DNA from: a bacterium
GTDB taxonomy: Bacteria > Desulfobacterota > Binatia > HRBIN30 > CADEER01
Length of the DNA: 64,000 bases
Direction: 5' to 3'
Assembly: GCA_019637795.1 (NCBI GenBank)
Contig: JAHBUY010000002.1
Coordinates: forward strand, 969,606 to 1,033,605
Shown here: positions 8,015 through 59,046 of the stretch, piece by piece
How the letters are laid out: the number at the start of each line of letters is the position of its first letter
Position numbering within the stretch: position 1 is the first letter of the stretch
The notes under the pieces: model-generated
What the model saw: the letters and a program-made list of their open reading frames with translations, nothing else
Told to the model about the DNA's origin: nothing
Databases searched by the model: none
Program-made: the position numbers and the translations under genes

Positions 8015-8743
8015 CTAGGCCGCCAGCTCGGCGGCGATCTGCGCCCGCACCGTCTCGCGCAGGCGGTCGCGGTCCTCGTACGTCAGGCCGGCGGTGGCGA
8101 TCGGCGGCAGGATCACCAGCTCGGCCGAACCGGGGAGAATCGAGAGATACTGCCCCTTGGGCATGATGCGGGTCGTCCCCTTGCAGACCACGGGGACGAT
8201 GGGGACGCCGAGTTGGATGGCGGCGACGAAGGCGCCCTTGCGGAACGGCAGCAGCTCGCCGTCGGCGCTGCGCGTCCCTTCCGGGAAGATCACCAGCGAG
8301 CCGCCGTCGAGCGTCACCTTCTGCAGCCGCTCGATGGAGGCCAGGGGATCGTCGCGATCGATGGGAATCATCCCCATGGTGCGGAGCACGGCGCCGAGGA
8401 TCGGCTCGGCGAACATCTCGCGCTTGGCGGCGAACCGGGTCACCCCTGGCAGGAGGCCGAGCAGGGCGGCGATGTCGAAGTGGCTCTGGTGGTTGGGTGC
8501 GAAGATGTACGGCCCGGGGCCGAGCTGTTCGCGCCCGCGCACCCGGATGCGCACGCCGCACACCCGCATGAGGTTGCGCGCCTGCAGCTTGGCGAAGCGC
8601 CACGCCAGCGGCCGGCTGATCTGGTACAGGCCGATGGCCACCAGTCCGGACGAGAACAGCATGGCGCGGAAGAGCACGCGGTTGAGGGCGACGCGCAACC
8701 GCGTCGGCTCGGCGGCGCTGACGGCAACGGCATCGGCGGGCAT
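8015..8743 (-). CDS. plsC: 1-acyl-sn-glycerol-3-phosphate acyltransferase (PlsC family)
   Basis: HxxxxD motif (NHQSHFDI) and FPEGTRS motif. The Met (MPADAVAVS) at 8743 was verified. The 30 residues annotated upstream of this Met mirror the neighbouring gene because of a perfect palindrome and are not considered coding. Confidence 0.8.
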   Translation of the reverse strand: MPADAVAVSAAEPTRLRVALNRVLFRAMLFSSGLVAIGLYQISRPLAWRFAKLQARNLMRVCGVRIRVRGREQLGPGPYIFAPNHQSHFDIAALLGLLPGVTRFAAKREMFAEPILGAVLRTMGMIPIDRDDPLASIERLQKVTLDGGSLVIFPEGTRSADGELLPFRKGAFVAAIQLGVPIVPVVCKGTTRIMPKGQYLSILPGSAELVILPPIATAGLTYEDRDRLRETVRAQIAAELAA

Positions 8744-8746
8744 GCG

Positions 8747-8822
8747 GGTAGCAGTATCCAGCGCCCTCCGGCGGGGCAAGATACGCGGCTTGCCCCGCCG
8801 GAGGGCGCTGGATACTGCTACC
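8747..8822. promoter_or_regulatory. perfect 76-bp palindrome (34-bp arms, 8-bp loop) exactly filling the gap between divergent start codons
   Basis: The arm GGTAGCAGTATCCAGCGCCCTCCGGCGGGGCAAG (8747-8780) and the arm 8789-8822 are exact reverse complements. The loop is ATACGCGG. Three nt separate each end from the plsC ATG (8743) and the rSAM GTG (8826). Symmetric GATACT hexamers (-10-like) lie about 10 bp from each start. Confidence 0.6.
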
Positions 8823-8825
8823 GGC

Positions 8826-10406: not shown

Positions 10407-11726
10407 TCAGAGCTCGCGTAACGTCCCGCGCACCCGGAAGAGCCCGCCGTCGGCGGTGGCGCCGAAACGTCCGCGCGCCGTCGCGTCGTCGAAGCGTCGG
10501 TGGCGCGCCGCCAGCTCGGCGGCGAGCCCGGCGTCGCCGCCGAGCAGGTCGGCGGTGCCGGACATCAGGCGCACGAAGGCGGTGCGCGCCTCGAGCGGTC
10601 CCTCGGGGTTGAGCAGCTTGCGCGCCGTCCAGAAGTACGAGTCGGGATCGGTGTGGTGGTCGTAGAAGAAGTAGAGGAACTGGCGGTAGCGCTCGAAGGC
10701 GGCGCGGTAGCGCCGGTCGTAGTCGGCGAGGGCGTCGGCCGGCGACACGTTCCCGGCCAGCAGGCGCTCGACGGCGCGCGCCGCCAGGTAGCCAGCCATC
10801 GACGCCAGGTGCACGCCCGTGGAGAACACCGGATCGATGAAGCAGGCGGCGTCGCCGGCGAGCAGGTAGCCGGGGCCGTGGAAGGCGCGGCTGTCGTAGG
10901 AGTAATCGCGGATCACCCGCACCGGCGCGACGCGCCGGGCGGCGCGCGTCCGCGCCGCCACCGGCGCGCAGGCGGCGACCAGGCGCTCGTAGAGCGGCGT
11001 CGCGTCGCCGCCCGCCTCGCCGGCGAAACGGGTGGCGTCGACCACCGCGCCGACGCTGGTGGTGCCGTCGTGCAGCGGGATGAACCAGAACCAGCCATCG
11101 GCGAAGGCGGCGGAGAGGATGTTGCCGGCGGTGTCGCCGGCCAGGGGCTCGGCGCCGGTGAAGTAGGAGAAGACCGCCAGGTTCTTGAAGAAGGGATCGA
11201 AGCGACGCTGCCCGTCGCGCCGCCCGAGCAGCGCCTGCTGGCCGCTGGCGTCGATCACCCACGGCGCCCGCGCCTCGACCGCCGCGCCGCGCTCGTCGCG
11301 GGCGGCGACCCGGTTGCACGCGCCGTCGTAGGTCACCGTCTCGACCCGATGCGCCTCGCGGACGTCGACTCCGAGCGCCGCCGCGTGGCGTAGCAGGAGG
11401 TGGTCGAACTCCGCCCGCACGACGTGGAAGGCGTGCGGCCGGCCGCCGGGATCGTCGCGGAAGTAGAAGCTCCACGGTTCGGCGCGCGCCCCCCACACGA
11501 AGGTGCCGCCCGGTTTGCGCACGAACCCGGCCGCCTCGATCGCCGGCAGCACCCCCAGCGCCTCCAGCACCGGCATGGTCGCCGACAGCAGCGACTCGCC
11601 GATGTGGTAGCGCGGAAAGCGCTCGCGCTCGAACAGCAGCACCCGCGCCCCCGCCTGGGCGAGAAACCCGGCCGCGACGCTGCCCGCCGGGCCGCCGCCG
11701 ATGACGATGGCGTCAGCGTCGAGCAT
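10407..11726 (-). CDS. flavin-dependent halogenase (tryptophan-halogenase family)
   Basis: GxGxxG FAD fold (IVIGGGPAGSVAAGFLA) plus the diagnostic WxWxIP motif (GWFWFIPL). The Met (MLDADAIV) at 11726 was verified. The 52 codons upstream are Arg/Gly-rich junk. Confidence 0.8.
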   Translation of the reverse strand: MLDADAIVIGGGPAGSVAAGFLAQAGARVLLFERERFPRYHIGESLLSATMPVLEALGVLPAIEAAGFVRKPGGTFVWGARAEPWSFYFRDDPGGRPHAFHVVRAEFDHLLLRHAAALGVDVREAHRVETVTYDGACNRVAARDERGAAVEARAPWVIDASGQQALLGRRDGQRRFDPFFKNLAVFSYFTGAEPLAGDTAGNILSAAFADGWFWFIPLHDGTTSVGAVVDATRFAGEAGGDATPLYERLVAACAPVAARTRAARRVAPVRVIRDYSYDSRAFHGPGYLLAGDAACFIDPVFSTGVHLASMAGYLAARAVERLLAGNVSPADALADYDRRYRAAFERYRQFLYFFYDHHTDPDSYFWTARKLLNPEGPLEARTAFVRLMSGTADLLGGDAGLAAELAARHRRFDDATARGRFGATADGGLFRVRGTLREL

Positions 11727-11740: not shown

Positions 11741-12376
11741 TCAGCGCTTGCGCTTCTTCGCCGGCGCTGGCGTCGGGGCCGCCGCGACCGCCTGCTGCAC
11801 CGGTTCGTTGTTGCTGGGCGCGCCGCCGATGATCGCCGACACCTGACCGTCCGCGCCGAACTTGACCTCGAAGGTCACCCACCGGTTGCGCCAGTAGACC
11901 CAGGTGTCGGCGCTGGTCGATGGCGTGCGGTGGGTCGGCGGATAGCCGAGCGACATCAGCACCTGCTCGCGCGTCATGCCGCGCTCGACGCGGCCGTCAC
12001 GGATGGCCGCCTGCACCGACGGCGAGAACGTCGCGAAGCGCGCGTGCGGGTCGATCTCGACCAGGACCTTGGCGAAGAACTGCTGAGAGGTCTCCTGCTC
12101 CGTCCCGTACGCCTGGGTGAGCGTGACGTTGACGTCGGCGGCGCGAAAGCTCACCGACCTGGCGGTCATGCCCGTGACCGTCGCGGGACTCCCGAACGGC
12201 AGCAGGGCGCCAACCTGATAATTGGCGTCGACCACGTCGGCCGGATTTTCATAGTGGATATTGCAGCACGTGTAGAGCTGCCGCGCCTGCCATTGCTGCA
12301 GAACGCCCGGTGCCACCTTCGCCGCGCAGCCGGCAAGCACGAGCGCCAGCGCCGCGATCGTTCGTCGAAATCGCAT
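11741..12376 (-). CDS. lipoprotein of unknown function
   Basis: Lipobox signal MRFRRTIAALALVLAGCAAK. The Met at 12376 was verified. Ends 15 nt upstream of the halogenase start on the same strand, so likely co-transcribed. Confidence 0.55.
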   Translation of the reverse strand: MRFRRTIAALALVLAGCAAKVAPGVLQQWQARQLYTCCNIHYENPADVVDANYQVGALLPFGSPATVTGMTARSVSFRAADVNVTLTQAYGTEQETSQQFFAKVLVEIDPHARFATFSPSVQAAIRDGRVERGMTREQVLMSLGYPPTHRTPSTSADTWVYWRNRWVTFEVKFGADGQVSAIIGGAPSNNEPVQQAVAAAPTPAPAKKRKR

Positions 12377-12498: not shown

Positions 12499-12912
12499 TC
12501 AGCACCCGATGGCGGCGAGGTGTCCCTCCTCGGCGTAGGCGAGCAGACCGGCGTCGCGGGTGACCAGGCGGTAGCCGCAGGCGCGCGCGGTGGCGGCGAG
12601 GATGCGATCCACCGGATCGCGCGGCGGACAGCCGGGCAGGAAGGAGGAGGCGATCAGCGCGGCGGGATCGGTGGCCGCCAGGGCGACGCCGGGCACGGCC
12701 AGCAATCGCCGGAACCACGCTTCCGGGCTGATCGAGATCGTCAGCCGGCTGCGCGCCACCAGCAGGCCGATCTCCCAGGCGCTCATCGGCGACACGAACA
12801 CCGGGCGCCCCGCCGCCGCGGCCGCGTCGAGCGCCGCCGCCGCGGCGCTCGCGATCGGCTGGTCCTCGGCGATCCAGATGGCCGCGCAGGTATCGAGCAG
12901 CAACGGCATCAT
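12499..12912 (-). CDS. vapC: PIN-domain ribonuclease toxin (VapC-like)
   Basis: PIN signature (MPLLLDTCAAIWIAED...ATDPA...LVTRD). A tandem ATGATG start overlaps the stop of the upstream small gene. Confidence 0.7.
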   Translation of the reverse strand: MMPLLLDTCAAIWIAEDQPIASAAAAALDAAAAAGRPVFVSPMSAWEIGLLVARSRLTISISPEAWFRRLLAVPGVALAATDPAALIASSFLPGCPPRDPVDRILAATARACGYRLVTRDAGLLAYAEEGHLAAIGC

Positions 12913-13313
12913 TCGGCGCGGTCGCCCCACTCCGGATCCGCCGGCGCGGCGAGATCGGTGCCGGGCGCGATGCCGAGGAGACCCTTCAGGGCGCCCCGCA
13001 AGGGGTGGCGCCCCCGCGCCACGTAGGCCGGCGCCGCCTCGGCCACCGCGGGCGGCGCCGCCGGCGCCGGCTCGGCAACGCGGCGGAACACCAGCTTCCG
13101 GCCGCTCATGTCGACATTCGCGCTCTCGTAGCCAGCCCGCTTCCAGGCACGGGTGATGACACTGCTCTGCTCGTTGTTGCTCCACCACGCCCGCTGGCCG
13201 GCACTCGGGGGAAGGGGGGCACCGATGATTCGCTCGATGGCCTCGAACGTCATCGGGACCTCCTTCTCCGTCCGACCCTTCAGGTAGTCCTCCAGCGGTC
13301 CGTACTTGGACAT
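12909..13313 (-). CDS. putative antitoxin partner of VapC
   Basis: Small 134-aa ORF immediately upstream, with its stop overlapping the toxin start (ATGATGA). The Ala/Pro-rich acidic C-terminus ending ...DPEWGD is typical of VapB-type tails. Confidence 0.5.
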   Translation of the reverse strand: MSKYGPLEDYLKGRTEKEVPMTFEAIERIIGAPLPPSAGQRAWWSNNEQSSVITRAWKRAGYESANVDMSGRKLVFRRVAEPAPAAPPAVAEAAPAYVARGRHPLRGALKGLLGIAPGTDLAAPADPEWGDRAE

Positions 13314-13431: not shown

Positions 13432-14862
13432 CTATGCCGCGCGGCGCAGCTTGGCGCGCATGTAGACCGCGGCCGAGCTGGCCATGCGGCCGATGAAGCG
13501 CGGCTCGCTCGCCATCAGGCGGGCCATGCCCCAGAGCACGTCCGGGCGCGAGTAGAAGGCGCGGTAGCAGCGGGTGAAGGCCGCTTCCAACTCGGCCTCG
13601 CTGAGGCCGCGGGGGATGAACACGAACTGCATCGCGTTCATGCGCTGCCAGTCCTCGCTGAAGTCGCCGTGCTGGTGGATGGTCGGGTAGGCGGGGGTGC
13701 CCGGATAGGGCGTGAACTTGGTGATCTGGCAGAAGTCGAGCTCGGCGACGCGCAGGAAGGCTTCGGTCTCGCGCAGGCTGTCGCTGGTCTCGGTGGGGTG
13801 GCCGAGCATGAGGTAGCCCTTGGTGCGGATGCCCGCCTGGCGGGTCAGGCGCAGCGTCTCGCGCATGCGCGGGATGCGCACCTCGCGTTTCACGGTGTCG
13901 AGCACGCGCTGCGAGCCGGATTCGATGCCGTAGGCGATCTGCCAGCAACCGGCGCGCCGCATCAGTTGCAGGGTCGGCAGGTCGAGCAGGTTGGGATGGC
14001 TGTTGCAGCTCCAGGTGAGGTCGAGCTGGGCGTCGATCAGCGCCTGGCAGAGATCGACGACGCGCTGTTTGCGCACCGTGAACAGGTCGTCGAGGAAGAG
14101 GATGTGGCGGGCGCCGCGCTCGGCGAGCTCGCGGCACAGCGCCACGACGCGCGCGACGCCGTGCAGCCGGCCCTTGCGGCCGGAGGTCGAGCGATCGCAG
14201 AAGACGCAGGTGAACGGGCAGCCGCGCGAGGTGATGAGGGTGGCCACCGGCGTCCGCGGGTAGCCGAACAGCGTCGGCTGGAAGCGGTGGGGGAAGTCCG
14301 GCAGCAGGTCCCAGGCGGGCGTCGGCAGCGCGTCGAGATCGTCGATGTACGGGGCGCGCGGGTTGGCAACGACCATTGCGCCGCGGCGGAAGGCGACCCC
14401 CGGCAGGTCGTCGACCGCCGCGCCCTGTTCGAGCCGCTCGAGCAGGGCGAACAGCGCCACCTCGCCCTCGCCGGCGATGCCGTAGTCGAAGCTCGGGAAG
14501 GCGGTCAGCGTCCGCTCGGGCACGGCGCTGACGTGGGCGCCGCCGACGATGGTGACGACGGCGGGCCGCGCCCGCTGCACGCGCTCGGCGATGCGCGCCG
14601 CGTTGGTGACCGAGATCGTCGTCGCCGACAGTCCGAGATAGTCGGGGCGCAGCGCCTCGATGCGGCGGGCGACCTCCTCGACCGGCGTCCCCTGTCCCTT
14701 GGCGTCGATCAGGTGCACGCGATAGCCGCGCTGGCGCGCCACCGCCGCGAGCATCAGCATCCCCATGCCGGGGATCGTCTCCTCGCTCTGGCGCAGGCGG
14801 TCGCGGCGGCGGTCCCAGAAGAGATACGGCGGTTCGCAGAGGACCAGCGTTCGCCCAGCCAT
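13432..14862 (-). CDS. B12-binding (class B) radical SAM enzyme
   Basis: Cobalamin-binding-like N-terminal domain, a CPFTCVFC (CxxxCxxC) cluster and a radical SAM core (LITSRGCPFTCVFCD). 476 aa. Confidence 0.8.
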   Translation of the reverse strand: MAGRTLVLCEPPYLFWDRRRDRLRQSEETIPGMGMLMLAAVARQRGYRVHLIDAKGQGTPVEEVARRIEALRPDYLGLSATTISVTNAARIAERVQRARPAVVTIVGGAHVSAVPERTLTAFPSFDYGIAGEGEVALFALLERLEQGAAVDDLPGVAFRRGAMVVANPRAPYIDDLDALPTPAWDLLPDFPHRFQPTLFGYPRTPVATLITSRGCPFTCVFCDRSTSGRKGRLHGVARVVALCRELAERGARHILFLDDLFTVRKQRVVDLCQALIDAQLDLTWSCNSHPNLLDLPTLQLMRRAGCWQIAYGIESGSQRVLDTVKREVRIPRMRETLRLTRQAGIRTKGYLMLGHPTETSDSLRETEAFLRVAELDFCQITKFTPYPGTPAYPTIHQHGDFSEDWQRMNAMQFVFIPRGLSEAELEAAFTRCYRAFYSRPDVLWGMARLMASEPRFIGRMASSAAVYMRAKLRRAA

Positions 14863-14940: not shown

Positions 14941-15495
14941 TCACCACACGAAGGGAATCAGACGCTTCACCTGGCGGCAGTACGCGGCGTACGCGGCGCC
15001 GAGTTGCGCGTGCAGGCGCCGCTCCTCCTGCGCGGCGCGCACCGCCAGCGCGGCGAACAGCGCCAGCCAGGTCAGCGCCAGCGGCGGCCGCGCCGCGACG
15101 ATCGCCGGCGCCGCGGCGGCCATCAGGTAGGCGAGGTAGAGCGGATTGCGCACCAGGCCGAAGGGGCCGTCGCGGCGCAGCCCTGACGGCGCCTCGTCGG
15201 GCAGCGGCCGGTGCCGCAGCGGCCCGATCTGCAGCCGGGCGCGCCACCAGAAGATCTGCGCCGCGGCGTAGAGCGCGATGCCGAGGCCGCCGCGCAGGCG
15301 CGGCACCTGCGGCATGACGCTCACCGCGGCGCAGGCGAGGGTGACGTGGACGGCGACCAGCAGCGGCGCGGCGCGCACCCAGAGGCGCTCGCGCGCCGAG
15401 TAGTGGGGCAGCGCCGCGGTCATCGCCTCGGCGCGGAAGGCGAAGAAGGGGATCCAGCCGACGCCGAAGATGGCCCCGAGCGCGATCGGGATCAT
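14941..15495 (-). CDS. isoprenylcysteine carboxyl methyltransferase (ICMT)/phospholipid methyltransferase family membrane protein
   Basis: C-terminal ICMT/PEMT signature (GPFGLVRNPLYLAYL...EERRLHAQLGAAYAAYCRQVKRLIP). The Met (MIPIALG) at 15495 was verified. Its ATGA overlaps the upstream gene. Confidence 0.7.
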   Translation of the reverse strand: MIPIALGAIFGVGWIPFFAFRAEAMTAALPHYSARERLWVRAAPLLVAVHVTLACAAVSVMPQVPRLRGGLGIALYAAAQIFWWRARLQIGPLRHRPLPDEAPSGLRRDGPFGLVRNPLYLAYLMAAAAPAIVAARPPLALTWLALFAALAVRAAQEERRLHAQLGAAYAAYCRQVKRLIPFVW

Positions 15496-16490
15496 GGGCT
15501 CGTCGCCCGGCGCGCCGTCGGCAGGCGCGCCGGCGAGACGCCGAGCAGCGACAGTGCCAGCAGTCCGATCAGGACGAACAGCGTCTCGTGCAGACGCAGG
15601 ATGACGCCGACCACGAAGCCGAGATCGGCGCGCCCGGTGGTGGCGCCGACCGCGAGCACCTGTGTCGCCTCCAGCGCGCCCAGGGCCGCCGGCGTCGGCA
15701 CCGCGCGCGCCATGCCGCCACCGAGCAGCACCATCAGCAGCACCGGCAGCTCGAGGTCGAGGCCGAAGGCGCCGAGCAGCGCCCGGTACTGCAGCACCAC
15801 GACCAGCTCGATCAGCGCCGTGAGCGCGATGCCGGCGACGAAGGTGGCGCGGTGGGCGGCGAAGAACCCCAGCAGGTGGTCCTCGACGCGGCGCAACCCG
15901 TCCAGCCAACCCGCGTGGCGCCCGACCCATCGGCGGGCGCGCGACCCGTACAACGGCGCCAGTGGCCGGCCGCCGCGCCCCAGCCGCACGACCAACGCCG
16001 CCAGCAGGACCAGCAGCGCGGCGACCCCGGCGCCGACGAGCCAGGTGGCGCGCGCCGACGTGCCGGCCATGGCGGCCGAGAACACGGCCAGGTAGGCGGC
16101 CACCGCGAGCAGATTGCCGATGACCTCGAGCAGCCGGTCGATCGCCACCCCCGCGCTCGCCGACGCGAGCGGGGTCGCGCCGGCGCGCGCCAGCACGGCG
16201 CGCAGCGGATCGCCGCCCACCCGCGCCAACGGCAGCAGCGAGGCGACGCCGTCGCCGGCCAGGCGCGCCGCGGCGATCCGCCCCACGCCGACCGGCGCCC
16301 CAACCGCCGCCGCCATCACCCGCCAGCGCCCGGCCTGCAGGCCGAGCACCACCGCCGACCACGCCGCATACTCGACCAGGCCGCGCGGCGAGGCGTGGCG
16401 CAACGCCGCCAGCGCGCCGCCGAGGCCGAACCACCATGCCAGCGCCGCCAGCAGCGCGGCGCCGAGCAGCAGCGGGACGCCGCCCTTCAC
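15492..16490 (-). CDS. UPF0104 / lysylphosphatidylglycerol-synthase-TM-like (flippase-like) membrane protein
   Basis: Multi-TM protein (KGGVPLLLGAALLAALAWWF...). Inferred GTG start at 16490 overlapping the deacetylase stop (GTGA). Further upstream the ORF overlaps the deacetylase in another frame. Confidence 0.6.
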   Translation of the reverse strand: MKGGVPLLLGAALLAALAWWFGLGGALAALRHASPRGLVEYAAWSAVVLGLQAGRWRVMAAAVGAPVGVGRIAAARLAGDGVASLLPLARVGGDPLRAVLARAGATPLASASAGVAIDRLLEVIGNLLAVAAYLAVFSAAMAGTSARATWLVGAGVAALLVLLAALVVRLGRGGRPLAPLYGSRARRWVGRHAGWLDGLRRVEDHLLGFFAAHRATFVAGIALTALIELVVVLQYRALLGAFGLDLELPVLLMVLLGGGMARAVPTPAALGALEATQVLAVGATTGRADLGFVVGVILRLHETLFVLIGLLALSLLGVSPARLPTARRATSP

Positions 16491-17302
16491 TGCCACGGCG
16501 CCGCCTCCCCTGGCGGCGCGGCGACCTGCGGAAAGAGGTCGCGGATGGCGCCGAAGGCGCGCGCGCGCAACAGGCGCTCGAGGCGCGGCGCCAGGCGCGC
16601 GCGGCCGGCGCGCAGCAGCCAGCGCGCCGCGCCCGGCGCGCTCGGCGAATCGGGATCGAGCTCCCACGGATGGAGGTAGAAGACGCCGCTGCCGACGTCG
16701 CGCTCGAAGCCGCGCAGGCCGTGCGCCAGCAGGCGCGGCGGCAGCAGTCGCAGCCCCCAGCCGCTGGCCGCCGGCAGGTGCCAGAAGCGGCAGAGCCGCA
16801 GCACCGCCACCGGCACCTCCCAGAGACCGTTGTGGTGGCGGTACGGCTGCCGCGGCGAGACCAGCTCGAGCCCCGGCGGCCGGTCGTTCGGCAGGACGCT
16901 CGAGTCGTAGGAGTAGCCCGCCGCGGCGAGTTGCTCGATCGGCCAGCGCACGCCGGCGCGGATGGCGAAGTAGGGCGCGCGGTAGCCGCGCACCGGTCGG
17001 CCGCTGACGTCCTCGAGCAGCCGCCGGGCGCGCTCGACGTCGGCGCGGAACTCGCGCCAGAGTTGGTTCGCCAGGTGATGGTGGGCGTGGCCGTGACTGG
17101 CGAGCTCGTGGCCGGCGTCGGCGATGCGCCGCACCAGCGCCGGATGCCGCTCGGCGACGGCGCCGAGCACGAAGAAGGTCGCCCGCGCCCCGGCGGCCGC
17201 GAACTGCTCGAGGAGCGCGTCGGTGTTACGCTCGACCCGGCCGCCGCCGGCGGCGGCCGCGAGGCCGCCGTCGTGAAACCAGTCCTCGACGTCGACCGAC
17301 AT
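16487..17302 (-). CDS. polysaccharide deacetylase (NodB-homology/CE4) family protein
   Basis: Met (MSVDVEDWFH) at 17302 was verified. NodB-type motifs (DVEDWF, HGHAHH). Confidence 0.75.
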   Translation of the reverse strand: MSVDVEDWFHDGGLAAAAGGGRVERNTDALLEQFAAAGARATFFVLGAVAERHPALVRRIADAGHELASHGHAHHHLANQLWREFRADVERARRLLEDVSGRPVRGYRAPYFAIRAGVRWPIEQLAAAGYSYDSSVLPNDRPPGLELVSPRQPYRHHNGLWEVPVAVLRLCRFWHLPAASGWGLRLLPPRLLAHGLRGFERDVGSGVFYLHPWELDPDSPSAPGAARWLLRAGRARLAPRLERLLRARAFGAIRDLFPQVAAPPGEAAPWQ

Positions 17303-17408
17303 GGCGTGGCGCGGCGCTGTCACGGTGCGCGGAACGTAGCCCGCCGGCGGCGCCAGTTCCACGACGGCGCGGTCCCGGCGGGCGCCGCCGCGGCGCGGGC
17401 GCGGGACG

Positions 17409-18602
17409 TTGACGCTTCGCCGCCCGCGGGCTAGCGGAGGCTCGGTGGAGATCTTCACGCTCGATGCCGACGACGTCCAGGCGCGCCTGGCCGCCGCAAC
17501 GCGGGTCGCTGACGCAGCCCGCGACGACGTGCTGGCGCGCGCCCGCGCCGCCCAGCCGCTCGAGGTCGACGACCTCGCGGTGCTGTGGACGGCGCCCTTC
17601 GACGCGGAGACGCTGTACGCCGCCGCGTGCGCGGCGCGCGCCCTTCGCCCGCGTTCGCTCGAGACCTTCGCGCCCCTCTACCTCACCAACACCTGCGACG
17701 CCGAATGCCGGATGTGCGGCATGCGCCGCGACAACGCGGCCCTGCGCCGCGAGACGGTCGACCTGCCGGCGGTCGAGGCCCAGCTCGAGATCCTGCGCCG
17801 GCGCGGCATGCACGGAGTCGCGCTGCTGACCGGCGAGTATCGCGCCGGCGGGCGCGACTGGGCGCTGGCGCACGTCAACCAGGCGCTGCGGCGCGCGACG
17901 ACGCTCGGCTTCCGCCACGTCCTGATCAACATCGGCGCCATCGACGCACACGAGTACGACGCGCTGCTCGCCGGCCTCGCCCGCCACGCCGGCGACGACG
18001 GCGGCCCGAAGCTGACGATGTGCACCTTCCAGGAGACCTACTCGCGGCCGCTGTACCGCGCCTTCATGGGCGACAGCGCGGACAACCCGCGCGCCGATTT
18101 CGAGCGCCGATTGGCGAACTTCGATCGCGCCCGCGCCGCCGGCATGCGGGTCGCCAACCCCGGCATCCTGGTCGGTCTCAATCCCGACCTCGGCTTCGAG
18201 CTGCTGGCGCTCGCGCTGCACACCCGGCACCTGCAGCGCCACGGGATGGAGGTCTACCTGTCGGTGCCGCGCCTGCGGCAGATCGCCGGCCGCGCCAACC
18301 AGCGCGGCGCCGGCGACGCGGCCTTCGTCCGCCTCGTCTCGATCCTGTCGCTCGGCCTGCCGGAGGCGAAGATCGTCCTCACGACGCGCGAGTCGGCGGA
18401 GATCCAGCGCCGCCTGGTGCCGCTGGTCGGCGTGCTCTCCGCCGGCTCGGCCGCGGTCGCGCCCTACACCAGCTCGGGCGCCCGTTTCCCGCTCGAGGCG
18501 AGCCAGTTCGAGGTCGTCGACCAGCGCCCGTTCGAAGCGATCCTCGGCGAGCACCTCCGTCCGGGCGTGCGCATCGAGAACTTCGACCCGCCGGCCGCGT
18601 AG
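17409..18602 (+). CDS. ThiH/HydG-family (tyrosine-lyase type) radical SAM enzyme
   Basis: FAPLYLTNTCDAECRMCGM matches the ThiH/HydG F-x-PLYLSN-C-xxx-C-xx-CGF motif. The downstream ALLTGEY matches ThiH LLVTGEH. The antisense 442-aa ORF is Arg/Gly-rich junk. Confidence 0.7.
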   Translation: MTLRRPRASGGSVEIFTLDADDVQARLAAATRVADAARDDVLARARAAQPLEVDDLAVLWTAPFDAETLYAAACAARALRPRSLETFAPLYLTNTCDAECRMCGMRRDNAALRRETVDLPAVEAQLEILRRRGMHGVALLTGEYRAGGRDWALAHVNQALRRATTLGFRHVLINIGAIDAHEYDALLAGLARHAGDDGGPKLTMCTFQETYSRPLYRAFMGDSADNPRADFERRLANFDRARAAGMRVANPGILVGLNPDLGFELLALALHTRHLQRHGMEVYLSVPRLRQIAGRANQRGAGDAAFVRLVSILSLGLPEAKIVLTTRESAEIQRRLVPLVGVLSAGSAAVAPYTSSGARFPLEASQFEVVDQRPFEAILGEHLRPGVRIENFDPPAA

Positions 18603-18605
18603 CGG

Positions 18606-19805
18606 TCACGGTCGATCGAGGAGCAGGGCGGTCATCGCGCCGCCGCGGGCGCTGCCGCACACCAGGGCGCGGCGGAGATCGGCGGCGGCGGCCTGGCGCG
18701 GCGCCAGGCGCAGCGCGGTGGGGATCGGCGTCTCCAGGTGGCAGAGCGGCGGGACCGCTTGCTCGCGCAGCGCCAGGCAGGCGGCGGCCGCGGTCATGGC
18801 GCCGGCGGCGCCGAAGTCGCCGATCGCGCCCTTGATCGAGGTCACGGTGGCGGCGCGGATCGCCGGCACGGCGGCGAAGAGGTCGAGCTCGCAGGCGTCG
18901 AGACGGCGCGACGAATTGGCGGCGCCGCACACCAGGTCGACCGGCGCCCCGGCGCACAGCGCCGTCAGCGGCGCGATGGCGGCCGGCGCCTGCAGCGGCC
19001 AGTCGTAGCGCGGCGCTTCGCTCGCGCAGGTCGCGGTCGCGACGATGCGGGCATAGATCGGCGCGCCGCGCCGGCGCGCCCGCTCGAGCGGCTCGAGCGC
19101 CAGCATCGCCGCCCCTTCGCCGACCACGACGCCGCTGCGCGCCGCGTCGTAGGGGCTGGCCCATTGGCGACCGCCGCGCTGGCCGGCGAGGGCGCGGGCC
19201 CGGTGCAGGACGCGCACCAGCACGGCCGCGATCTCGTCGGCGCCGCCGGCGAGCACGAGATCGGCGCGGCCGCGGCGCACCGCGTCGACGCCGAGCGCGA
19301 TGGCGGCCTCGCCGGACACCTCCGCCTGCGAGACGGTGAAATTGACGCCGCTGAAGCCGAATTCCATCGCCGCGTAGCTGGCCGGGGCGTTCAGCACCAG
19401 GTTGGGAAACGCCATCGGGCTCACCCCGGCGGGGCCCTTCTGGAACAGGCGGTCGAGTTGCTGCACCGACTCGGTCGCCGCGCCGAGAGCGGAGCCGAAG
19501 ACGATGCCGGCGCGGGCGCGATCGAGCGTCGCCAGGGCGCGCGCGTCGTCGAGCGCCATGCGGCAGGCGGCGACGGTCATGCGCGACAACGCGTCCATGC
19601 GCCGGTAGTGCGTCGAGGCGACGAGCTCGCGGGGGGAGAAGTCGCGCACCGCGGCGGCGCTCGGCGGCAGGCCGTCCGCCAGCGCCAGACCGTCGATCGG
19701 CGCGATGCCGGAGCGGCCGGCGCGCAGCGCGTTCCAGAATTGGCGCGGCCCGACGCCGATCGGACTGACGACGCCGATGCCGGTGACGGCGACGTCGTCG
19801 CTCAT
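18606..19805 (-). CDS. ketosynthase-like protein lacking the active-site Cys (KS-beta / chain-length-factor-like)
   Basis: Thiolase fold is present, but the TACSS position reads FTVSQAEVSG (Gln replaces Cys). The Met (MSDDVAV) at 19805 overlaps the stop of the upstream KS (ATGA). Confidence 0.75.
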   Translation of the reverse strand: MSDDVAVTGIGVVSPIGVGPRQFWNALRAGRSGIAPIDGLALADGLPPSAAAVRDFSPRELVASTHYRRMDALSRMTVAACRMALDDARALATLDRARAGIVFGSALGAATESVQQLDRLFQKGPAGVSPMAFPNLVLNAPASYAAMEFGFSGVNFTVSQAEVSGEAAIALGVDAVRRGRADLVLAGGADEIAAVLVRVLHRARALAGQRGGRQWASPYDAARSGVVVGEGAAMLALEPLERARRRGAPIYARIVATATCASEAPRYDWPLQAPAAIAPLTALCAGAPVDLVCGAANSSRRLDACELDLFAAVPAIRAATVTSIKGAIGDFGAAGAMTAAAACLALREQAVPPLCHLETPIPTALRLAPRQAAAADLRRALVCGSARGGAMTALLLDRP

Positions 19806-21016
19806 GGCGTCGCCTCGGGGGCGGCGCCGAGGACCACGCTCGTATTGTTGCCGCCGAAGCCGTACGAGTTCGAGAGCACGGTGCGCAGGGCCGCCGGGCG
19901 GCTGCGCGCCGGCACGTAGTCGAGATCGCACTCGGGATCCGGCTCGCGCAGGCTGACGGTCGGCGGAAGGAAACCGCCGCGCAGCGCCAGCAGCGCCGCC
20001 AGCGCCTCGATGGCGCCGGCGGCGGCGAGGCAGTGTCCGACCTGCGACTTGGTCGACGACACCGGCACCGCATAGGCGCGCGGTCCGAGCACCGCCTTGA
20101 TGGCGCGCGTCTCGACGGCGTCGTTCAGGGGCGTCCCGGTGCCGTGCGCGTTGACGTAGTCGATGCGGTCGGCGTCGACGCCGGCATCGGCGAGGGCGCG
20201 CCGCATCGCCAGGATGGCGCCGGCGCCGTCGGGGCGCGGCTGGGTGAGATGGTGCGCGTCGGCGCTGACCCCGTAGCCGAGGAGCTCGCCGAGGATCGGC
20301 GCGCCGCGGCGCGCGGCGGCCTCCCACGCCTCGAGCACGAACAGGGCCGCCCCTTCGCCCAGGGTCAGGCCGGCGCGGGCGCGATCGAACGGCCGGCAGG
20401 GGACGCGATCGAGGGCCTGCAGGACGTTGAACCCCGAGTAGGTCATGCGGCACAGCGACTCGGCGCCGCCGCACAGCACCGCGGTCGCCTGGCCGCCGCG
20501 GATCCAGTCGGCGGCGATGCCGAGGGCGTTGGCGCCGGAGGAGCACGCGGTGGACACCGTGACGCGCGGGCCGCGGCTGCCGATCAACGCCGCGACGGCG
20601 TCGGTGGCGACCGCGATCGGCGTCTCGAGCCAATCGCGCAGCGGCGCCCGCGCTCCCGTGCCGGCGCCTTCGATGCGGTAGCTCTCCTCGCCGCCGGCGA
20701 GCCCGCCGGTGGTGGTGCCGAGCACCACGCCGCAGGTCCGGCCGTCGTCGAGCCCGCTGCCCCGCCAGGCCTCCGCGGCGGCGACCACGGCGAGCCGCGC
20801 CGTGTGCGAGAGCCGCCGCGCCGCGCCGCTCGGAATGGCCTCCGGCAGCGGCGGCGGCGGCGCTTCCGCGGCGCAGGCCGTGCGGTAGCCCGCGGCGGCG
20901 AAGCGGGTCAGCGCGCCGATGCCGCACCGGCCCTCGCGCAGGCCGGACGCGAAGGCCTCGACCCCGACGCCGAGGGCGTTGATGCTGCCGATGCCGGTGA
21001 TCGCGACCCGGGTCAT
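19802..21016 (-). CDS. beta-ketoacyl synthase (KS-alpha / FabF-like, active)
   Basis: Active-site Cys (VSTACSS), His (NAHGTGT) and His (KSQVGHCL) motifs are present. Confidence 0.85.
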   Translation of the reverse strand: MTRVAITGIGSINALGVGVEAFASGLREGRCGIGALTRFAAAGYRTACAAEAPPPPLPEAIPSGAARRLSHTARLAVVAAAEAWRGSGLDDGRTCGVVLGTTTGGLAGGEESYRIEGAGTGARAPLRDWLETPIAVATDAVAALIGSRGPRVTVSTACSSGANALGIAADWIRGGQATAVLCGGAESLCRMTYSGFNVLQALDRVPCRPFDRARAGLTLGEGAALFVLEAWEAAARRGAPILGELLGYGVSADAHHLTQPRPDGAGAILAMRRALADAGVDADRIDYVNAHGTGTPLNDAVETRAIKAVLGPRAYAVPVSSTKSQVGHCLAAAGAIEALAALLALRGGFLPPTVSLREPDPECDLDYVPARSRPAALRTVLSNSYGFGGNNTSVVLGAAPEATP

Positions 21017-21169
21017 CTCATCGCCTGGAGGTGGAGCGCGCCTGGACGCCCGGGTGACCGGTCGCGCAGGCGCGGGAGATCTCGCGCAGCCATCGCATCG
21101 ACGGAGGCGAAGTATGACAGAGCGAGCGGACGACGCCAGCGGCGCGGCGGCTGCCCCGCGGCCGCGATC

Positions 21170-21943
21170 TCACGCCATGGTCAGGCCGCCGTCGACGGCG
21201 AGGGTGGCGCCGGTGACGTAGGCGGCGGCCGGCGAGGCGAGGAAGCGGATCGCCTGCGCCACCTCGTCCGGCTGGCCGACGCGGCCGAGCGGGACGTGGC
21301 CGAGGTGGCGCTGGCGCAGCGGCGCCGGCATGTCGGCGATCAGACGGGTGTCGACCAGACCGGGGCAGACGGCGTTGACGGTGATGGCATAGCGCCCGAC
21401 CTCGCGCGCCAGCGACTTGGTGAAGCTGAGCAGCCCGCCCTTGGCGGCGGCGTAGTTGGCCGCGCCCTCCTGGCCGAGCAGCGCCGCCGGCGAGACGACG
21501 TTGATGATCCGCCCCCAGCGCCGCTTGATCATCGGCCGCAACGCCTGCCGGGCGCACAGGAAGGCGCCGCGCAGGTTGACGGCCAGCACCTCGTCCCACT
21601 GGGCGGGGCTGAGCAGCATGGCGAGGCCGTCGCGCGTCACCGCGGCGTTGTTGACCAGGATGTCGACGCCGTCCCAGCGTTTGCGCAGGTGGGCGAACAT
21701 CGCCTCGACCTGCGCCGCGTCGGCGACGTCCGCCTGCACCACCTCGACCTCGCCGCCGTGCGCGCGCAGCCCCTCCGCGGTCTCCTCCGCCTCCAGCGCC
21801 GAGCGCGCGTAGTTGACGGCCACCGCGGCGCCCGCCGCCGCCAGCACCTCGGCGGTGGCGCGGCCGATGCCGCGCGAGGCGCCGGTGACCAGGGCGCGCC
21901 GGCCGTCGAGGCGCCAGGGATCGTTCAGCGCAGCAGGCGCCAC
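21170..21943 (-). CDS. 3-oxoacyl-ACP reductase (FabG-like SDR)
   Basis: Rossmann [12 protein letters not shown], and the YAAAK catalytic motif (NYAAAKGG). A GTG start at 21943 was inferred, giving a 19-nt overlap with the upstream rSAM gene. The rest of the 723-aa ORF overlaps that rSAM out of frame. Confidence 0.75.
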
Positions 21944-23298
21944 AACTGGCCCTTGATGCGGCGGTCGCGCAGGCGGCGCAGCACGGCGATGTTGGTCTTG
22001 ATGCCGAGCCCCGGCACGATCCAGTTCGGCTGCTGGCGGGCATAGGCGTCGATGCGATCGATGAGCGCGTCGCCGAGCCCCGGCGCGACGTAGAAGCGGG
22101 GCTCGATCAACGGGTCGTCGGCGTCGATGAGGCCGTCGCGCAGCGCGATCTCGACCATGCCGGTGCCGGGCAGGATGCGGATGCCGGTCATCGCGATCAC
22201 CGCCGTCGGCCGCAGCTCCTCCATCAGGGCGATGGTCTGGTCGATGCTCTCCGCGGTCTCGCCGGGGCCGCCGAAGATCAGGCTGTGGCAGAACTTGAGC
22301 CCGTGCGCCGCGAACAGCGCCGAGGTGCGGCGCAGATCGTCGAGGGCGAACTCCTTGCGCAGGTTGGCGATCAGGGTCGGCGCTCCGGAATCGGTGCCGA
22401 GCTCGATGGCGCGGCAGCCGGAGCGGGCCATCAGGTCGCACAGCTCGGCGTCGACGAACTTGGGGTTCAGGTAGGCGGACCACTCGATGTCGAGGTCGCG
22501 GGCGATGAGCTCGCGGCAGATCGCCTTGGCGTGGCGCAGCGGCAGATTGAAGATGTTGTCGACGAAGAACCAGTGGCGCGCCCCGGTCTCGCGCCGCGCC
22601 GCCTCGATCTCGTCCACCACCGCCGCCGGGCTGCGCACGCGCACGGTCGCGCCTTCGATCAGCGGATAGCTGCAGAACACGCACTCGAAGACGCAGCCGC
22701 GCTTGGTCTGGATGTTCAGCGCGCCCCCGCGCTCGTAGTAGCGGTGCCAGTCGAAGGCGGCGCGGCGCGGCGCGCCGGCGTCGTCGAGACGGCGGATGCG
22801 ACCGGTCGGGGTGACGCAGACGCCGCGGCCCGCGGGCTCGCAACGCATCGCCGCCGTCGAGCGCAGCGACGCGCCGGCGGCCAGGCGCTCGAGCACCCAG
22901 GGGAAGGCGAGCTCGCCCTCGCCGACCACGCCGACCTCGGCGTCGAGCCAGCGCATCAGCGTGCCCGGCATCACCGTGAAGCCGGCGCCGCCGAGCACGA
23001 TCGGCGCCGGCGTCGCGGCGCGCACGGTCTCGATCAGGGCGCGGTAGTCGGGCACGTAGGAGGTGGTCTGCGGATAGGCCGACGAATCGAGGTTGCGCAG
23101 CGAGATGCCGACCGCGTCGGGCGCGAAGTCGCGCACCTGCGCCGTCAGCGCCGCCCGCGGATCGCCGGCGAAGCAGCAGTCGAACGTGGCCACCGTGTGG
23201 CCGTGCTGCTCGGCGACCGTCGCCATGTAGGCGGCGCCGAGCGGATACACCGGATCGGGGAGGTGTTCCGTGTTGGCGGAGATGAGCAGAACGCGCAT
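21925..23298 (-). CDS. B12-binding (class B) radical SAM enzyme
   Basis: The ATG ([12 protein letters not shown]) at 23298 was verified. Cobalamin-binding-like N-terminal domain and a CVFECVFC cluster. Confidence 0.8.
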
Positions 23299-23414
23299 GG
23301 GAAGCCGCCGCGCGGGGGGCGCGACGGCATCCCGCTAGCACAGGGGTGGCGGTGGGTCACGGTTCGAACGGGCCGCTCGGGCGGCGACGCCGCCCGCCGC
23401 CGCCGCGCCACGGT

Positions 23415-24230
23415 TCAGAACCGGGCTTGCAGCGCCAGGCCCTGGCCGGTGGGGAGCGGGCCGATCCCCCAGCGAACCTGGGGATCGGGTCGAATGCCGC
23501 CGCTGTCGACCTGCTCGCGGTACGCCTGCCAACTGTTCAGCGGCTCCCACGGCGTGAGCAGGATCTGCGCCTCGCCGACCGCGGTGTTGAGGAAGAACAG
23601 CAGCGCCGCGTCGCCGAGATCGTCGCGCGCCACCAGCACCGAGGCGGCGCTGGCGTTGAGGACGACGTTGCCGGTGTGGAGCAGCCAGCCGGTGCGCTGC
23701 TCGGCGCGACCGGCGGCGCGGTAGAGGATCTCCTCGCCGGCGGCCAACTGGGCGGCGCGGTCCTCGTGCGTCGCCGACGGCATCGCCGCCAGCGGATCCG
23801 AGCCGCTGCGTCCGGGCAGCGGATCGAGCAGCAGGTAGGTGGTGCCGATGAGCCCGAGGCTGCTGTTGAGGATGTCGTAGACCTGCTTGTCGTCGTTGCT
23901 CTCGACCGCCGCCGTCGCCGCGCCCGCCGCCATGCCGGCGGCGTTGACGGCGAGGAAGCCGTAGTACCACAGCGACGCGTGCAGCTCGTTGTCGTCGAGC
24001 GAGCGGGTGACGAACGTCAGCCGGTCGAGGATCTCCCGATCGCTGAGTTGCGCCGCCTCCTCGGCGGTCAACGGCTTCTTCCCGGGGACGCCGGGATCGA
24101 GCGCCTTGCGCGCCAGCTCGGCGGCACCGTGGTAGACGGCGCAGCCCTGCACGGCGGCCAGCGCCGCCGCGACGGCGATCAGGCGGAGCAGCCGACGCGC
24201 GACCTCGACCCGCGACCTGCTGGTGGTCAT
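23415..24230 (-). CDS. lipoprotein of unknown function
   Basis: Met at 24230 was verified. Signal peptide with lipobox (LAAVQGCA). Confidence 0.5.
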   Translation of the reverse strand: MTTSRSRVEVARRLLRLIAVAAALAAVQGCAVYHGAAELARKALDPGVPGKKPLTAEEAAQLSDREILDRLTFVTRSLDDNELHASLWYYGFLAVNAAGMAAGAATAAVESNDDKQVYDILNSSLGLIGTTYLLLDPLPGRSGSDPLAAMPSATHEDRAAQLAAGEEILYRAAGRAEQRTGWLLHTGNVVLNASAASVLVARDDLGDAALLFFLNTAVGEAQILLTPWEPLNSWQAYREQVDSGGIRPDPQVRWGIGPLPTGQGLALQARF

Positions 24231-24261
24231 CCTCACTCCTCCGCTTCCGGCGGATGCCGGT

Positions 24262-25503
24262 TCAGATTCGCCCCGCCGCGCCACCCGCGGCTCCTGGCGA
24301 TCTCGTATCACGGCCGATGAGCGCCGCGAGATTGTCGCGCATGATCTTGCGGACCTCGAGCGGCGACATCCCGGGCAGCTCGTCGGCGAGCTCGGCCGGC
24401 CACAGGAGTCCCTCGGGATGGGGATAGTCGGAGCCGCCGAGCACGTGGTCGGCGCCGATCAGCCGCGCCAGCGCCGGGATGTCGTCCTCGAAGAAGGGCG
24501 CCACCCACACGTTGCGCCGGAAGGTGTCGCTCGGCCGCTCCGGCGGCACGCCGAAGCGCCACATGTCCTTGCTGTAGAGGCGCGCCAGGTGATCGAGCTT
24601 GTGCAGCAGCGGCGCCACCCAGCCCGAGCCGTACTCGATGCTCAGCACCCGCAGGCCCGGGAAGCGGCCGAAGAGGTTGTCGGCGATCAGCGCCGTGATG
24701 GTATCGACGACCGGCCGCTCGGTGAACGACAGCGCCCACTCCATCAGGGTGTGGCGGTGCGACGGCGGGTGCGGGCGCAGGCCCCAGGGCGGGTTGTACA
24801 TCTCGCTGAAGGGGGTGCGGCCGATGTGGTAGACGATGTTGAGCGACGCCTCCTGGCAGCGCGCCCAGAAGGGATCGAAGTGGGGATCCGCCGGCGAGCG
24901 GCCGGCGAAGGGCCCGGCGGTCAGGATGGCGAAGCGCGCGCCGCGCGCCAGCAGGCGGTCGAGCTCGGCGACCGCCTGGTCGCGGTCGAACAGCGACAGC
25001 AGCGGCGCGCCGAACACGCGGCCGTCGCCCCCGTAGCCCCAATCCTCCTCCAGCCAGCGGTTGAAGGCGCGCAGGCTCGGGTACAGCACCTCCGGCGTCT
25101 CGCGCAGTTGCGGCTCGACGCCGACGCCGGCGGTGGGTAGCAGCAGGGCGGCCTCGACGCGCTGCGCGTCCATCCGCGCCAGGCGGGCCGCGCGGTCGGT
25201 GAACTCCGGCACGGCGAGGGCGTCGATCGGCTGCAGGCTCGGGCTGCCGCCCTCCTCGGTCTCGCCGCGCAGGAACGCCTTCATGATGCCGGGGGCGCCG
25301 ACGCTGTCGCCGGCGCCGACGCTGAAGAACTGGCAGCGTTCGCGGCCGACGTACATTCTGCCCGGGCGGGTGGTGCCGTCGGGCCCGCGGTCGATCCACA
25401 CCGTCCGTTCCCGCCACGCCGCCTCGATGTGCCGGGTGAAGCAGTCGTCCGGCTCGTAGTAATGGGTGTCGGCGTCGAAGAGCGCGTAGTCGAGCGCGGC
25501 CAT
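24262..25503 (-). CDS. amidohydrolase-2 family metal-dependent hydrolase (ACMSD-like)
   Basis: Met (MAALDYALFDADTHYYEP) at 25503 was verified. Amidohydro_2 motifs (DxHxH-like DADTHY, HIG, GSDYPH). Confidence 0.7.
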   Translation of the reverse strand: MAALDYALFDADTHYYEPDDCFTRHIEAAWRERTVWIDRGPDGTTRPGRMYVGRERCQFFSVGAGDSVGAPGIMKAFLRGETEEGGSPSLQPIDALAVPEFTDRAARLARMDAQRVEAALLLPTAGVGVEPQLRETPEVLYPSLRAFNRWLEEDWGYGGDGRVFGAPLLSLFDRDQAVAELDRLLARGARFAILTAGPFAGRSPADPHFDPFWARCQEASLNIVYHIGRTPFSEMYNPPWGLRPHPPSHRHTLMEWALSFTERPVVDTITALIADNLFGRFPGLRVLSIEYGSGWVAPLLHKLDHLARLYSKDMWRFGVPPERPSDTFRRNVWVAPFFEDDIPALARLIGADHVLGGSDYPHPEGLLWPAELADELPGMSPLEVRKIMRDNLAALIGRDTRSPGAAGGAAGRI

Positions 25504-57534: not shown

Positions 57535-57554
57535 CGCCCCTCCTCCGGCCGAGG

Positions 57555-59024: not shown

Positions 59025-59046
59025 CCCCGCGGCCCGCCGCTGCCAG

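Follow-up and report, generated by a model that had tools for sequence, protein, structure and literature searches.

A ketosynthase and its triad-less partner in a radical-SAM-rich lipid gene cluster of Candidatus Binatia, a probable counterpart in kind of the anammox amxFabF2/amxFabFmut heterodimer

Among described systems in which an intact ketosynthase (KS) stands beside a disabled paralogue, the closest to the locus treated here is the amxFabF2/amxFabFmut dimer of anammox bacteria, which has been presented as the first chain-length factor (CLF) in a fatty-acid pathway and is encoded by a cluster described as unique to ladderane producers (bioRxiv 10.64898/2026.05.19.726425). According to the same preprint, the two proteins co-purify, decarboxylate malonyl-ACP (ACP, acyl carrier protein) and form acetoacetyl-ACP only together, and in crosslinking assays the preferred chain length shifts when Phe135/Val139 on a helix-loop-helix of amxFabFmut are mutated. 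Earlier work had described FabF paralogues whose active sites are changed, those of Rhodopirellula with acidic residues at Cys163 among them, together with radical S-adenosylmethionine (SAM)-rich clusters resembling type II fatty-acid synthesis genes in Kuenenia (kuste3335-3352) and Desulfotalea psychrophila, for which a polyunsaturated hydrocarbon or polyunsaturated fatty acid product was suggested but is unproven (Rattray et al. 2009, PMC2649909), and a 2026 review states that modification by radical SAM enzymes has so far been proposed for no ketoacyl lipids other than ladderanes and jawsamycin (PMC13459092). Here we analyse two adjacent ketosynthase genes, KSα and KSβ, in a 64-kb window (the whole stretch of 64,000 nucleotides at positions 969,606 to 1,033,605 of contig JAHBUY010000002.1, assembly GCA_019637795.1; GC content ~72%) from a member of the Binatia. 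The Binatia are an uncultured phylum of soil and sediment.

KSα (19802-21016, minus strand, 404 aa) is a FabF-like ketosynthase with an intact catalytic triad, and KSβ (18606-19805, minus strand, 399 aa) is a full-length KS fold that lacks this triad and resembles a chain-length factor. Both match PF00109 and PF02801, with E-values of 1e-34 to 1e-38 for KSα and of 3e-36 and 5e-07 for KSβ, and the KSα stop overlaps the KSβ start by ATGA, as stated in an earlier note on this DNA that was drawn up by reading the letters. The exact KSβ sequence has an NCBI entry, hypothetical protein KF840_09610, which comes from an unclassified bacterial metagenome-assembled genome (MAG); its relatives at 46-85% identity come nearly all from Candidatus Binatia MAGs, and more distant KSα–KSβ pairs occur in Sumerlaeota and Nitrospirota. 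The reading that we consider probable is that of a fatty-acid-synthase-type KS/CLF-like heterodimer of the amxFabF2/amxFabFmut kind, in which KSβ would be inert and an ACP would be supplied in trans, and which would feed a radical-SAM-tailored membrane lipid anchored by ApeD/ApeJ-like transferases. What we observe directly are the order and overlaps of the genes, the residues of the active sites, homology, synteny, purifying selection and the natural fusions described below; the heterodimer, the tunnel role of KSβ, the use of a trans-acting ACP and the downstream fate of the lipid are inferred.

Alignment with E. coli FabF places Cys158, His291, Lys323, His328 and Phe387 of KSα at C163, H303, K335, H340 and F400, in line with the full Cys-His-His set already noted for the upstream ketosynthase. 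At the same columns KSβ has Glu162, Ala295, Lys325, Asp330 and Arg387, i.e. the Cys and both His are lost and the Lys is kept. The string FTVSQAEVSG, which the earlier note had read as carrying a Gln at the active-site Cys position, is indeed present in KSβ, but its Gln160 (codon 19326-19328) aligns with FabF Thr161, two residues upstream of the Cys column, and the catalytic Cys position itself is held by Glu162 (codon 19320-19322, minus strand). This call was made from four alignments (BLASTP against KSα, HMMER against E. coli FabF and the structure chain 9s5h_C, and two MAFFT alignments), all of which are free of gaps between the GxxG before the site and the AGGAE after it; BLASTP pairs STACSSG of KSα with SQAEVSG of KSβ, and on proper alignment no intact Cys emerges in KSβ. 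As a control, the CLF from a plasmid-borne aromatic type II polyketide synthase (PKS) cluster of Streptomyces sp. NBC_01005 (L036) was included in one of the MAFFT alignments with KSβ, and it does have a Gln in the Cys column. Across the 120 closest KSβ homologues the column holds Glu in 118 and Gln in two. An AlphaFold2 model of KSβ reached a pLDDT of 76 and a pTM of 0.84, with low confidence at residues 158-162 (pLDDT <50), which include Glu162. As far as alignment can tell, the Cys-to-Gln hallmark of chain-length factors is absent from KSβ, and a Gln-type decarboxylase mechanism is not plausible because both His are missing; the proposal that KSβ decarboxylates malonyl-ACP through its Gln and thereby primes the chain is thus not supported. 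For annotation in general, a Gln seen by eye near the active site is insufficient for calling a chain-length factor.

Comparison with solved structures led to the anammox proteins. The best match of KSβ is 9s5h_C (E 2e-45), and KSα matches 9s5h_B (E 6e-81). Since a search with the sequence of 9s5h_C retrieves Brocadia FabFmut proteins at ~90% identity, we assign both chains to the amxFabFmut/amxFabF2 heterodimer of Brocadia fulgida described by Granatino et al. 2026; a literature search on the PDB code 9S5H returned no paper citing it, and the link to the preprint came by topic. With BLASTP, KSβ scores 177 bits against Scalindua FabFmut, 169 against Brocadia FabFmut and 144 against E. coli FabF, while KSα scores 279 bits against amxFabF2 versus 231 against FabF, with 37% identity to the Scalindua amxFabF2 (E 4e-94). 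With HMMER, KSβ scores higher with FabFs, true ketosynthases and amxFabFmut than with any solved CLF, and among its 60 best PDB matches, which include the actinorhodin KS (5e-34) and the ishigamide KS, there is no CLF chain. A Foldseek search of the KSβ model against a PDB copy predating 9S5H gave generic FabF/KS matches with near-equal scores.

A local motif is common to KSβ and amxFabFmut as well. KSβ residues 129-144, SPMAFPNLVLNAPASY (19374-19421, minus strand), correspond to a helix-loop-helix and are identical at 12 of 16 positions to the amxFabFmut motif NPM[ED]FPNTVLNAPASR in the MAFFT alignment, as against only 5 of 16 in E. coli FabF; the aligned segments of KSα, of the Streptomyces CLF and of KS2, the dead member of a second KS pair found in relatives, do not carry it. 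Phe133 and Val137 of KSβ are invariant in the KSβ family alignment and correspond to the amxFabFmut tunnel residues Phe135/Val139.

The phylogeny, a neighbour-joining (NJ) tree with bootstrap and not a maximum-likelihood tree, groups the KSβ proteins into one clade with a support of 95-97% and the Binatia KSα proteins into another with ~100%, both outside the six housekeeping FabFs included. In addition, both proteins stay below the TIGR03150 (FabF) cutoff of 493.75, with 383 bits for KSα and 217 bits for KSβ, and no fabH, fabD or acpP lies near the pair. A housekeeping FabF/FabB identity was considered and rejected on these grounds, namely sub-cutoff TIGR03150 scores, no fab operon and clades apart from the six FabFs, so that a place inside the housekeeping FabF/FabB group, named beforehand as the outcome that would count against a specialised pair, was not found.

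The same data bear on the original description as a type-II-PKS-style pair, according to which KSβ would be a Gln-type CLF, priming a polyketide or polyene chain through decarboxylation of malonyl-ACP. The adjacent, overlapping genes in the order KSα to KSβ, the loss of the Cys from KSβ, the Gln at the Cys position in two of the 120 homologues, and a loose grouping of the dead partners including the Streptomyces CLF in the NJ tree (42% bootstrap) would all agree with it. Against this stand Glu162 in all four alignments where the CLF control has Gln, the loss of both His, the lack of an ACP, cyclase or aromatase beside the pair, the lack of any CLF among the 60 best structures, and an NJ support of 0% for a clade of KSβ, amxFabFmut and CLFs. 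Classical membership is unsupported, and we regard this reading as highly improbable and, as judged from sequence, largely refuted.

For the heterodimer of the anammox kind, the genes themselves provide further evidence. KSα and KSβ are adjacent in ~24 retrieved loci, and a search over 1.84 billion cluster representatives (50% identity) gave 808 proteins with E <= 1e-30 to KSβ, of which ~40 among the best 150 representatives are KS–KSβ fusions of ~800 aa. Their N-terminal domain carries the full C/H/K/H/F set, and their dead C-terminal domain carries an FPNxV motif; the residue that stands in place of its Cys varies (R, E, A, G, F, Q, W and others), as also seen across the wider family (G/F/A/Q/D/Y). 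One of the fusions, P0250 (L040, 10001-12475), is encoded within a type II PKS-like cluster that also contains two ACPs, a cyclase, a ketoreductase and a malonyltransferase. The natural KS–KSβ fusions, the gene overlap and the conserved adjacency lend indirect support to a heterodimer, and an obligate dimer of KSα with KSβ, of the amxFabF2/amxFabFmut kind, is the most likely arrangement. Both open reading frames (ORFs) are intact with a GC content at third codon positions (GC3) of 0.95, coding frames having been called from GC3 periodicity, and both genes are under purifying selection, with ratios of nonsynonymous to synonymous substitutions (dN/dS) of 0.20 (KSα) and 0.25 (KSβ) against the closest relative, L005, and of 0.22-0.39 against L017.

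In the mechanism that we propose, KSα with Cys158, His291 and His328 would perform all of the chemistry, comprising acyl transfer to the Cys, decarboxylation of malonyl-ACP and Claisen condensation. KSβ, with Glu162, Ala295 and Asp330, would be catalytically inert, and its helix-loop-helix with Phe133 and Val137 would line the acyl tunnel at the dimer interface and thereby set substrate or chain length. Chain start, if decarboxylative, would take place in the KSα site as reported for the anammox dimer in vitro, with no need for a Gln in KSβ. FabG would reduce the β-keto product, the ACP would act in trans, being either the housekeeping AcpP or an ACP encoded elsewhere, and the acyl product would be tailored by the radical SAM enzymes of the cluster before ApeD/ApeJ-like transferases put it on a membrane lipid or glycolipid anchor.

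In the direction of transcription, the genes on the minus strand are a B12-binding radical SAM enzyme (21925-23298; PF02310 and PF04055), a FabG-type 3-oxoacyl-ACP reductase (21170-21943; adh_short_C2, E 3e-67), a gap of 153 bp (21017-21169), KSα and KSβ, which we read as one operon. FabG and the radical SAM gene, previously said to follow the KS pair, do adjoin it but lie upstream in transcription order. The radical SAM enzyme passes the NCBIfam model TIGR04072 ("lipid biosynthesis B12-binding/radical SAM protein"; 381.8, cutoff 360), the end of its gene shares 19 bp with the start of FabG, and an enzyme of this type lies upstream of FabG-KSα-KSβ in most Binatia loci. FabG scores slightly below the cutoff of TIGR01830 (278.6 versus 297.75 bits) and is 45% identical to E. 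coli FabG and 39% to ApeQ. A promoter and terminator scan of 17000-24500 revealed nothing exceeding shuffled expectation.

No ACP gene adjoins the pair. Searched in all six frames with a small profile and four ACP seeds, the window gave a single ACP-like ORF, at 59047-59289 and 38 kb from the KS pair, which agrees with the distance given before. This ORF belongs to an FkbH–ACP–MBOAT–GDSL module, which does not form one contiguous lipid island with the KS cluster; it is a separate locus, because two-component sensors, an ABC1 kinase, a CoA-transferase, AlaRS and further unrelated genes lie between the two. The module (54137-62687) also contains an SDR, a MaoC dehydratase and an acyltransferase, and resembles a system for glyceryl/acyl-carrier O-acylation that has no relation to the KS cluster.

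Comparison of 28 related loci distinguished two Binatia architectures. In type A (L015, L018, L019, L020, L022, L023, L025) an ACP gene lies between FabG and KSα, where the window has its 153-bp gap, and a FabZ-like dehydratase gene follows downstream in most of these loci; the ACP ORFs carry …IFVEGLGLDSIDALELVVL… and are closest to ApeE of the aryl polyene (APE) system (42%). Type B (the window, L005, L007, L009-L012, L014, L016, L017, L021 and L001) is without an ACP or FabZ-like gene within ±10 kb. Searching with tblastn and the type-A ACP ORFs detected no remnant in the window, which is also without traces of the FabZ-like gene, and none of the small ORFs flanking the pair in L001 and L003 (32-159 aa) is an ACP or a dehydratase. 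The missing ACP is thus a genuine lineage feature, and since the FabG–KSα gap of relatives still contains an ACP gene of its own, a secondary loss or a relocation of that gene in the lineage of the window is probable, in which case the carrier would be supplied in trans. The ACP-bearing and ACP-less variants amount to a natural experiment on how far the dimer depends on a dedicated carrier.

Most Binatia relatives also possess a second KS pair upstream, with KS1 intact and KS2 dead, plus an AMP-ligase, an MMPL transporter and a DAG-kinase-like gene (DAGK); this pair is found at 5434-7840 in L001 and at 4057-6438 in L003, and also in L012, L014, L017 and L019. KS2 has Leu/Phe/Thr at the Cys column and a differing motif, FAYTVSSAAAGE.

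The window and L005 are without the ACP, FabZ-like gene, KS1/KS2, AMP-ligase, MMPL and DAGK seen in relatives, as would be expected if the pair were a decaying or redundant remnant of a larger cluster without a product, or spare FabF paralogues. We consider this quite improbable in view of the intact ORFs, the GC3 of 0.95 and the low dN/dS values given above. Moreover, the reduced arrangement is conserved in L005 together with its flanks (amidohydrolase, lipoprotein) at 79-85% identity, and the missing genes may sit elsewhere on the 1.07-Mb contig, outside the window.

The residues that replaced the triad of KSβ allow a further alternative, namely that KSβ is neofunctionalised and that Glu162 and Glu166, Lys325, Asp/Glu330 and Arg387 form a new site, e.g. 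an acid/base site at which an intermediate bound to ACP or CoA would be hydrolysed, decarboxylated or dehydrated. In the 120 closest homologues, besides the Glu at the Cys column, the Lys is kept in 118, a Glu at +4 (Glu166) in 115 and an Arg at the F400 column in 118, and the H340 column is always acidic (Glu in 112, Asp in 8), while the H303 column holds a variable small residue. Other dead partners are variable at the Cys position, type-B clusters are without a dehydratase gene, and acidic residues at Cys163 have been noted in Rhodopirellula FabF paralogues (PMC2649909). On the other side, type-A relatives that bear a FabZ-like gene keep the Glu as well, so the Glu does not track the missing dehydratase, and a buried Glu/Lys/Arg network is equally explained by a structural plug. 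We know of no KS-fold enzyme that uses a Glu at the Cys position, and a new catalytic function of KSβ appears distinctly unlikely to us.

Several observations weigh against the inert KSβ partner of the anammox kind that we favour. The margin of amxFabFmut over FabF is slight for KSβ (159 versus 157 bits with HMMER, besides the 177 versus 144 bits with BLASTP), and NJ support for a clade of KSβ and amxFabFmut is 4.5%, with deeper nodes unsupported. The near-invariant Glu162, Glu166, Glu/Asp330 and Arg387 represent more conservation than a dead pocket needs; amxFabFmut (Val/Ile by alignment, Thr in Scalindua brodae according to bioRxiv 10.64898/2026.05.19.726425) and KS2 vary at the Cys position where KSβ has Glu. 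The pathway encoded in the window is incomplete, with no dehydratase, second KS pair, AMP-ligase or MMPL protein, and the trans-acting ACP is an assumption; the anammox dimer favoured its own dedicated ACP (bioRxiv 10.64898/2026.05.19.726425).

By synteny, the operon forms part of a conserved Binatia cluster that extends from ~6.2 to 23.3 kb in the window and includes four radical-SAM enzymes. In agreement with the earlier statement on cyclases and aromatases, domain searches of the cluster proteins gave no such domains, with two proteins lacking any Pfam/NCBIfam match. These are a 164-aa protein (11741-12235, minus strand) that is conserved beside the cluster in L005 and L012, and a predicted lipoprotein of 273 aa (23415-24236, minus strand) that is conserved beside it in L005.

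A NosL/ThiH-like radical SAM gene of the aromatic-amino-acid lyase type (17409-18602, plus strand) converges on KSβ, with the stop codons 3 bp apart, and its product scores 245 bits against TIGR04158 (3-methyl-2-indolic acid synthase) and 151 bits against ThiH, both below cutoff. The gene adjoins KSβ in nine Binatia loci (L007, L009, L010, L011, L012, L016, L017, L021, L024). L001 and L013 are without it, and there an aromatic ammonia-lyase (PAL/TAL) gene lies a few genes past KSβ (14319-15302 in L001). The presence of either gene near KSβ hints at an aromatic amino-acid-derived unit entering the pathway.

On the minus strand follow a polysaccharide deacetylase (16487-17458; Polysacc_deac_1 and DUF3473) that is syntenic with the KS pair in Binatia loci, and a likewise syntenic LPG_synthase_TM/flippase-like membrane protein (15492-16496; PF03706, E 1.6e-18), which scores 44.9 bits against TIGR00374, over its cutoff of 43.2. 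Beside the latter, relatives keep the gene of a 184-aa membrane protein (14941-15495, minus strand) weakly like isoprenylcysteine carboxyl methyltransferase (NF040696, 40.8 bits, sub-cutoff). A second B12-binding radical SAM enzyme (13432-14862, minus strand) is distantly HpnJ/BchE-like (HpnJ, 185.6 bits versus a cutoff of 577.6) and syntenic in type-B loci; the idea of a hopanoid (Hpn) cluster was dropped, since scores with the HpnJ, HpnL and HpnR models are all far under cutoff. Two overlapping small ORFs of 143 and 134 aa (the latter DUF7662) at 12499-13313 (minus strand), between the ORF at 11741-12235 and the HpnJ-like gene, may be a toxin–antitoxin-like insertion. An FAD-dependent halogenase/geranylgeranyl-reductase-like oxidoreductase (10407-11726, minus strand; Trp_halogenase, E 1.4e-44; CmlS-like at 333 bits, sub-cutoff) is syntenic in L001 and L005.

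The third B12-binding radical SAM enzyme, rSAM_a (8826-10178, plus strand; probably starting with GTG at 8826), is the homologue of the anammox Cluster I radical SAM enzyme, being 31-33% identical over ~408 aa to the Scalindua and Brocadia proteins (E 1e-64). The other two B12-binding enzymes of the window are 22-24% identical to them (24% for the TIGR04072 enzyme), and the TIGR04072 enzyme was rejected as the Cluster I counterpart, as the Scalindua Cluster I protein reaches 86 bits against the cutoff of 360.

Three transferase genes complete the cluster: a PlsC/ApeD-like lysophospholipid acyltransferase (8015-8743, minus strand; PF01553, E 5e-33; 27% identical to E. coli ApeD), an LpxL-family acyltransferase (6997-7977, plus strand; PF03279, E 1.5e-31; 27% to ApeJ over 280 aa, E 6e-13) and a GT2 glycosyltransferase (6168-6848, minus strand; PF00535; 37% to ApeJ over 218 aa, E 5e-31). 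By sequence, the last two look like a split of the single 558-aa ApeJ of E. coli. An inverted repeat at 8740-8829, with 41-nt arms that are 95% complementary and a spacer of 8 nt, takes up nearly all of the space that separates the divergently transcribed PlsC/ApeD-like gene (minus strand, probable ATG at 8743) and rSAM_a (plus strand, probable GTG at 8826), and could be an operator or an RNA hairpin common to both 5' ends.

With ~800 proteins at E <= 1e-30 to KSβ, the locus suggests that KS pairs with a dead partner, some of them fused, extend well beyond anammox bacteria. A more far-reaching interpretation, which we put forward tentatively and consider unlikely, is that Binatia reuse the anammox Cluster I core (the KS/CLF-like dimer and the B12-binding radical SAM enzyme, with ACP and FabZ in sister lineages) and combine it with three more radical SAM enzymes and APE-type anchoring transferases. 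If true, Binatia would make a radical-SAM-remodelled ketoacyl lipid, only the third proposed case after ladderanes and jawsamycin (PMC13459092), and the near-invariant Glu at the former Cys of KSβ might in that case have a function instead of filling a dead site. Parts common to Binatia and anammox bacteria are the KS pair, one B12-binding radical SAM enzyme, ACP and FabZ, and the anammox-only part is the phytoene-desaturase-like gene, a split that narrows the candidates for the ladder-forming step. Pairs of this kind have so far been characterised in the 2026 preprint only, which lends moderate interest to their wide distribution, to the ACP-less arrangement and to the near-invariant Glu.

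Set beside known systems, the pair resembles actinobacterial type II PKS KSα/CLF pairs (actinorhodin, PDB 1TQY; L036) in the overlapping KSα to KSβ order, in the similar length of the inactive partner and in the presumed formation of a heterodimer. It differs from them in that their CLFs have Gln at the Cys position, where KSβ has Glu, and no FPNxVxNA motif, and in that the L036 pair is flanked by ACP, cyclase and aromatase genes. With the APE cluster of E. coli CFT073 (L033) the locus has in common a KSα 36% identical to ApeO and the ApeQ-like FabG, as well as the GT2 and LpxL-like proteins that match ApeJ and the PlsC-like protein that matches ApeD, and relatives add an AMP-ligase and MMPL. 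ApeC, however, is a truncated CLF of 240 aa, whereas KSβ is a full KS fold and only 23% identical to ApeO over 172 aa. The window holds none of the ApeE/F ACPs, the ApeI/P dehydratases, the ApeH ligase, the ApeK/L/M export set or ApeB, and APE clusters, unlike the Binatia cluster, carry no radical SAM enzymes. Literature searches on aryl polyenes in Binatota, and on aryl polyenes together with ladderanes, yielded genome-mining surveys only. The Kuenenia kuste3335-3352 and Desulfotalea clusters are similar by their published description, uniting altered FabF paralogues, several radical SAM enzymes and a polysaccharide deacetylase in one lipid cluster.

The anammox Cluster I consists of ACP, FabZ, FabF2, FabFmut, a phytoene-desaturase-like gene (PDH) and a B12-binding radical SAM gene, of which the window matches FabF2, FabFmut and the radical SAM gene only; an ACP, FabZ or PDH gene of this cluster was not found in the window, nor does anything in it point to a ladderane product. 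Further differences are the FabG and TIGR04072 genes that adjoin the KS pair in the window, the hosts (a Planctomycete versus Binatia at ~72% GC), an identity of only ~31%, and a clade unresolved in the NJ tree. As in amxFabF2/amxFabFmut (kuste3605/3606; PDB 9S5H/9S5I), an intact KS lies beside a full-length paralogue that has lost the Cys and both His and has kept the Lys, the helix-loop-helix with its tunnel Phe and Val recurs in KSβ, the Arg at the gate-Phe position is the same as in Brocadia FabFmut, and a homologous B12-binding radical SAM enzyme is encoded in the same Binatia cluster, in type-A relatives along with an ACP and a FabZ-like gene.

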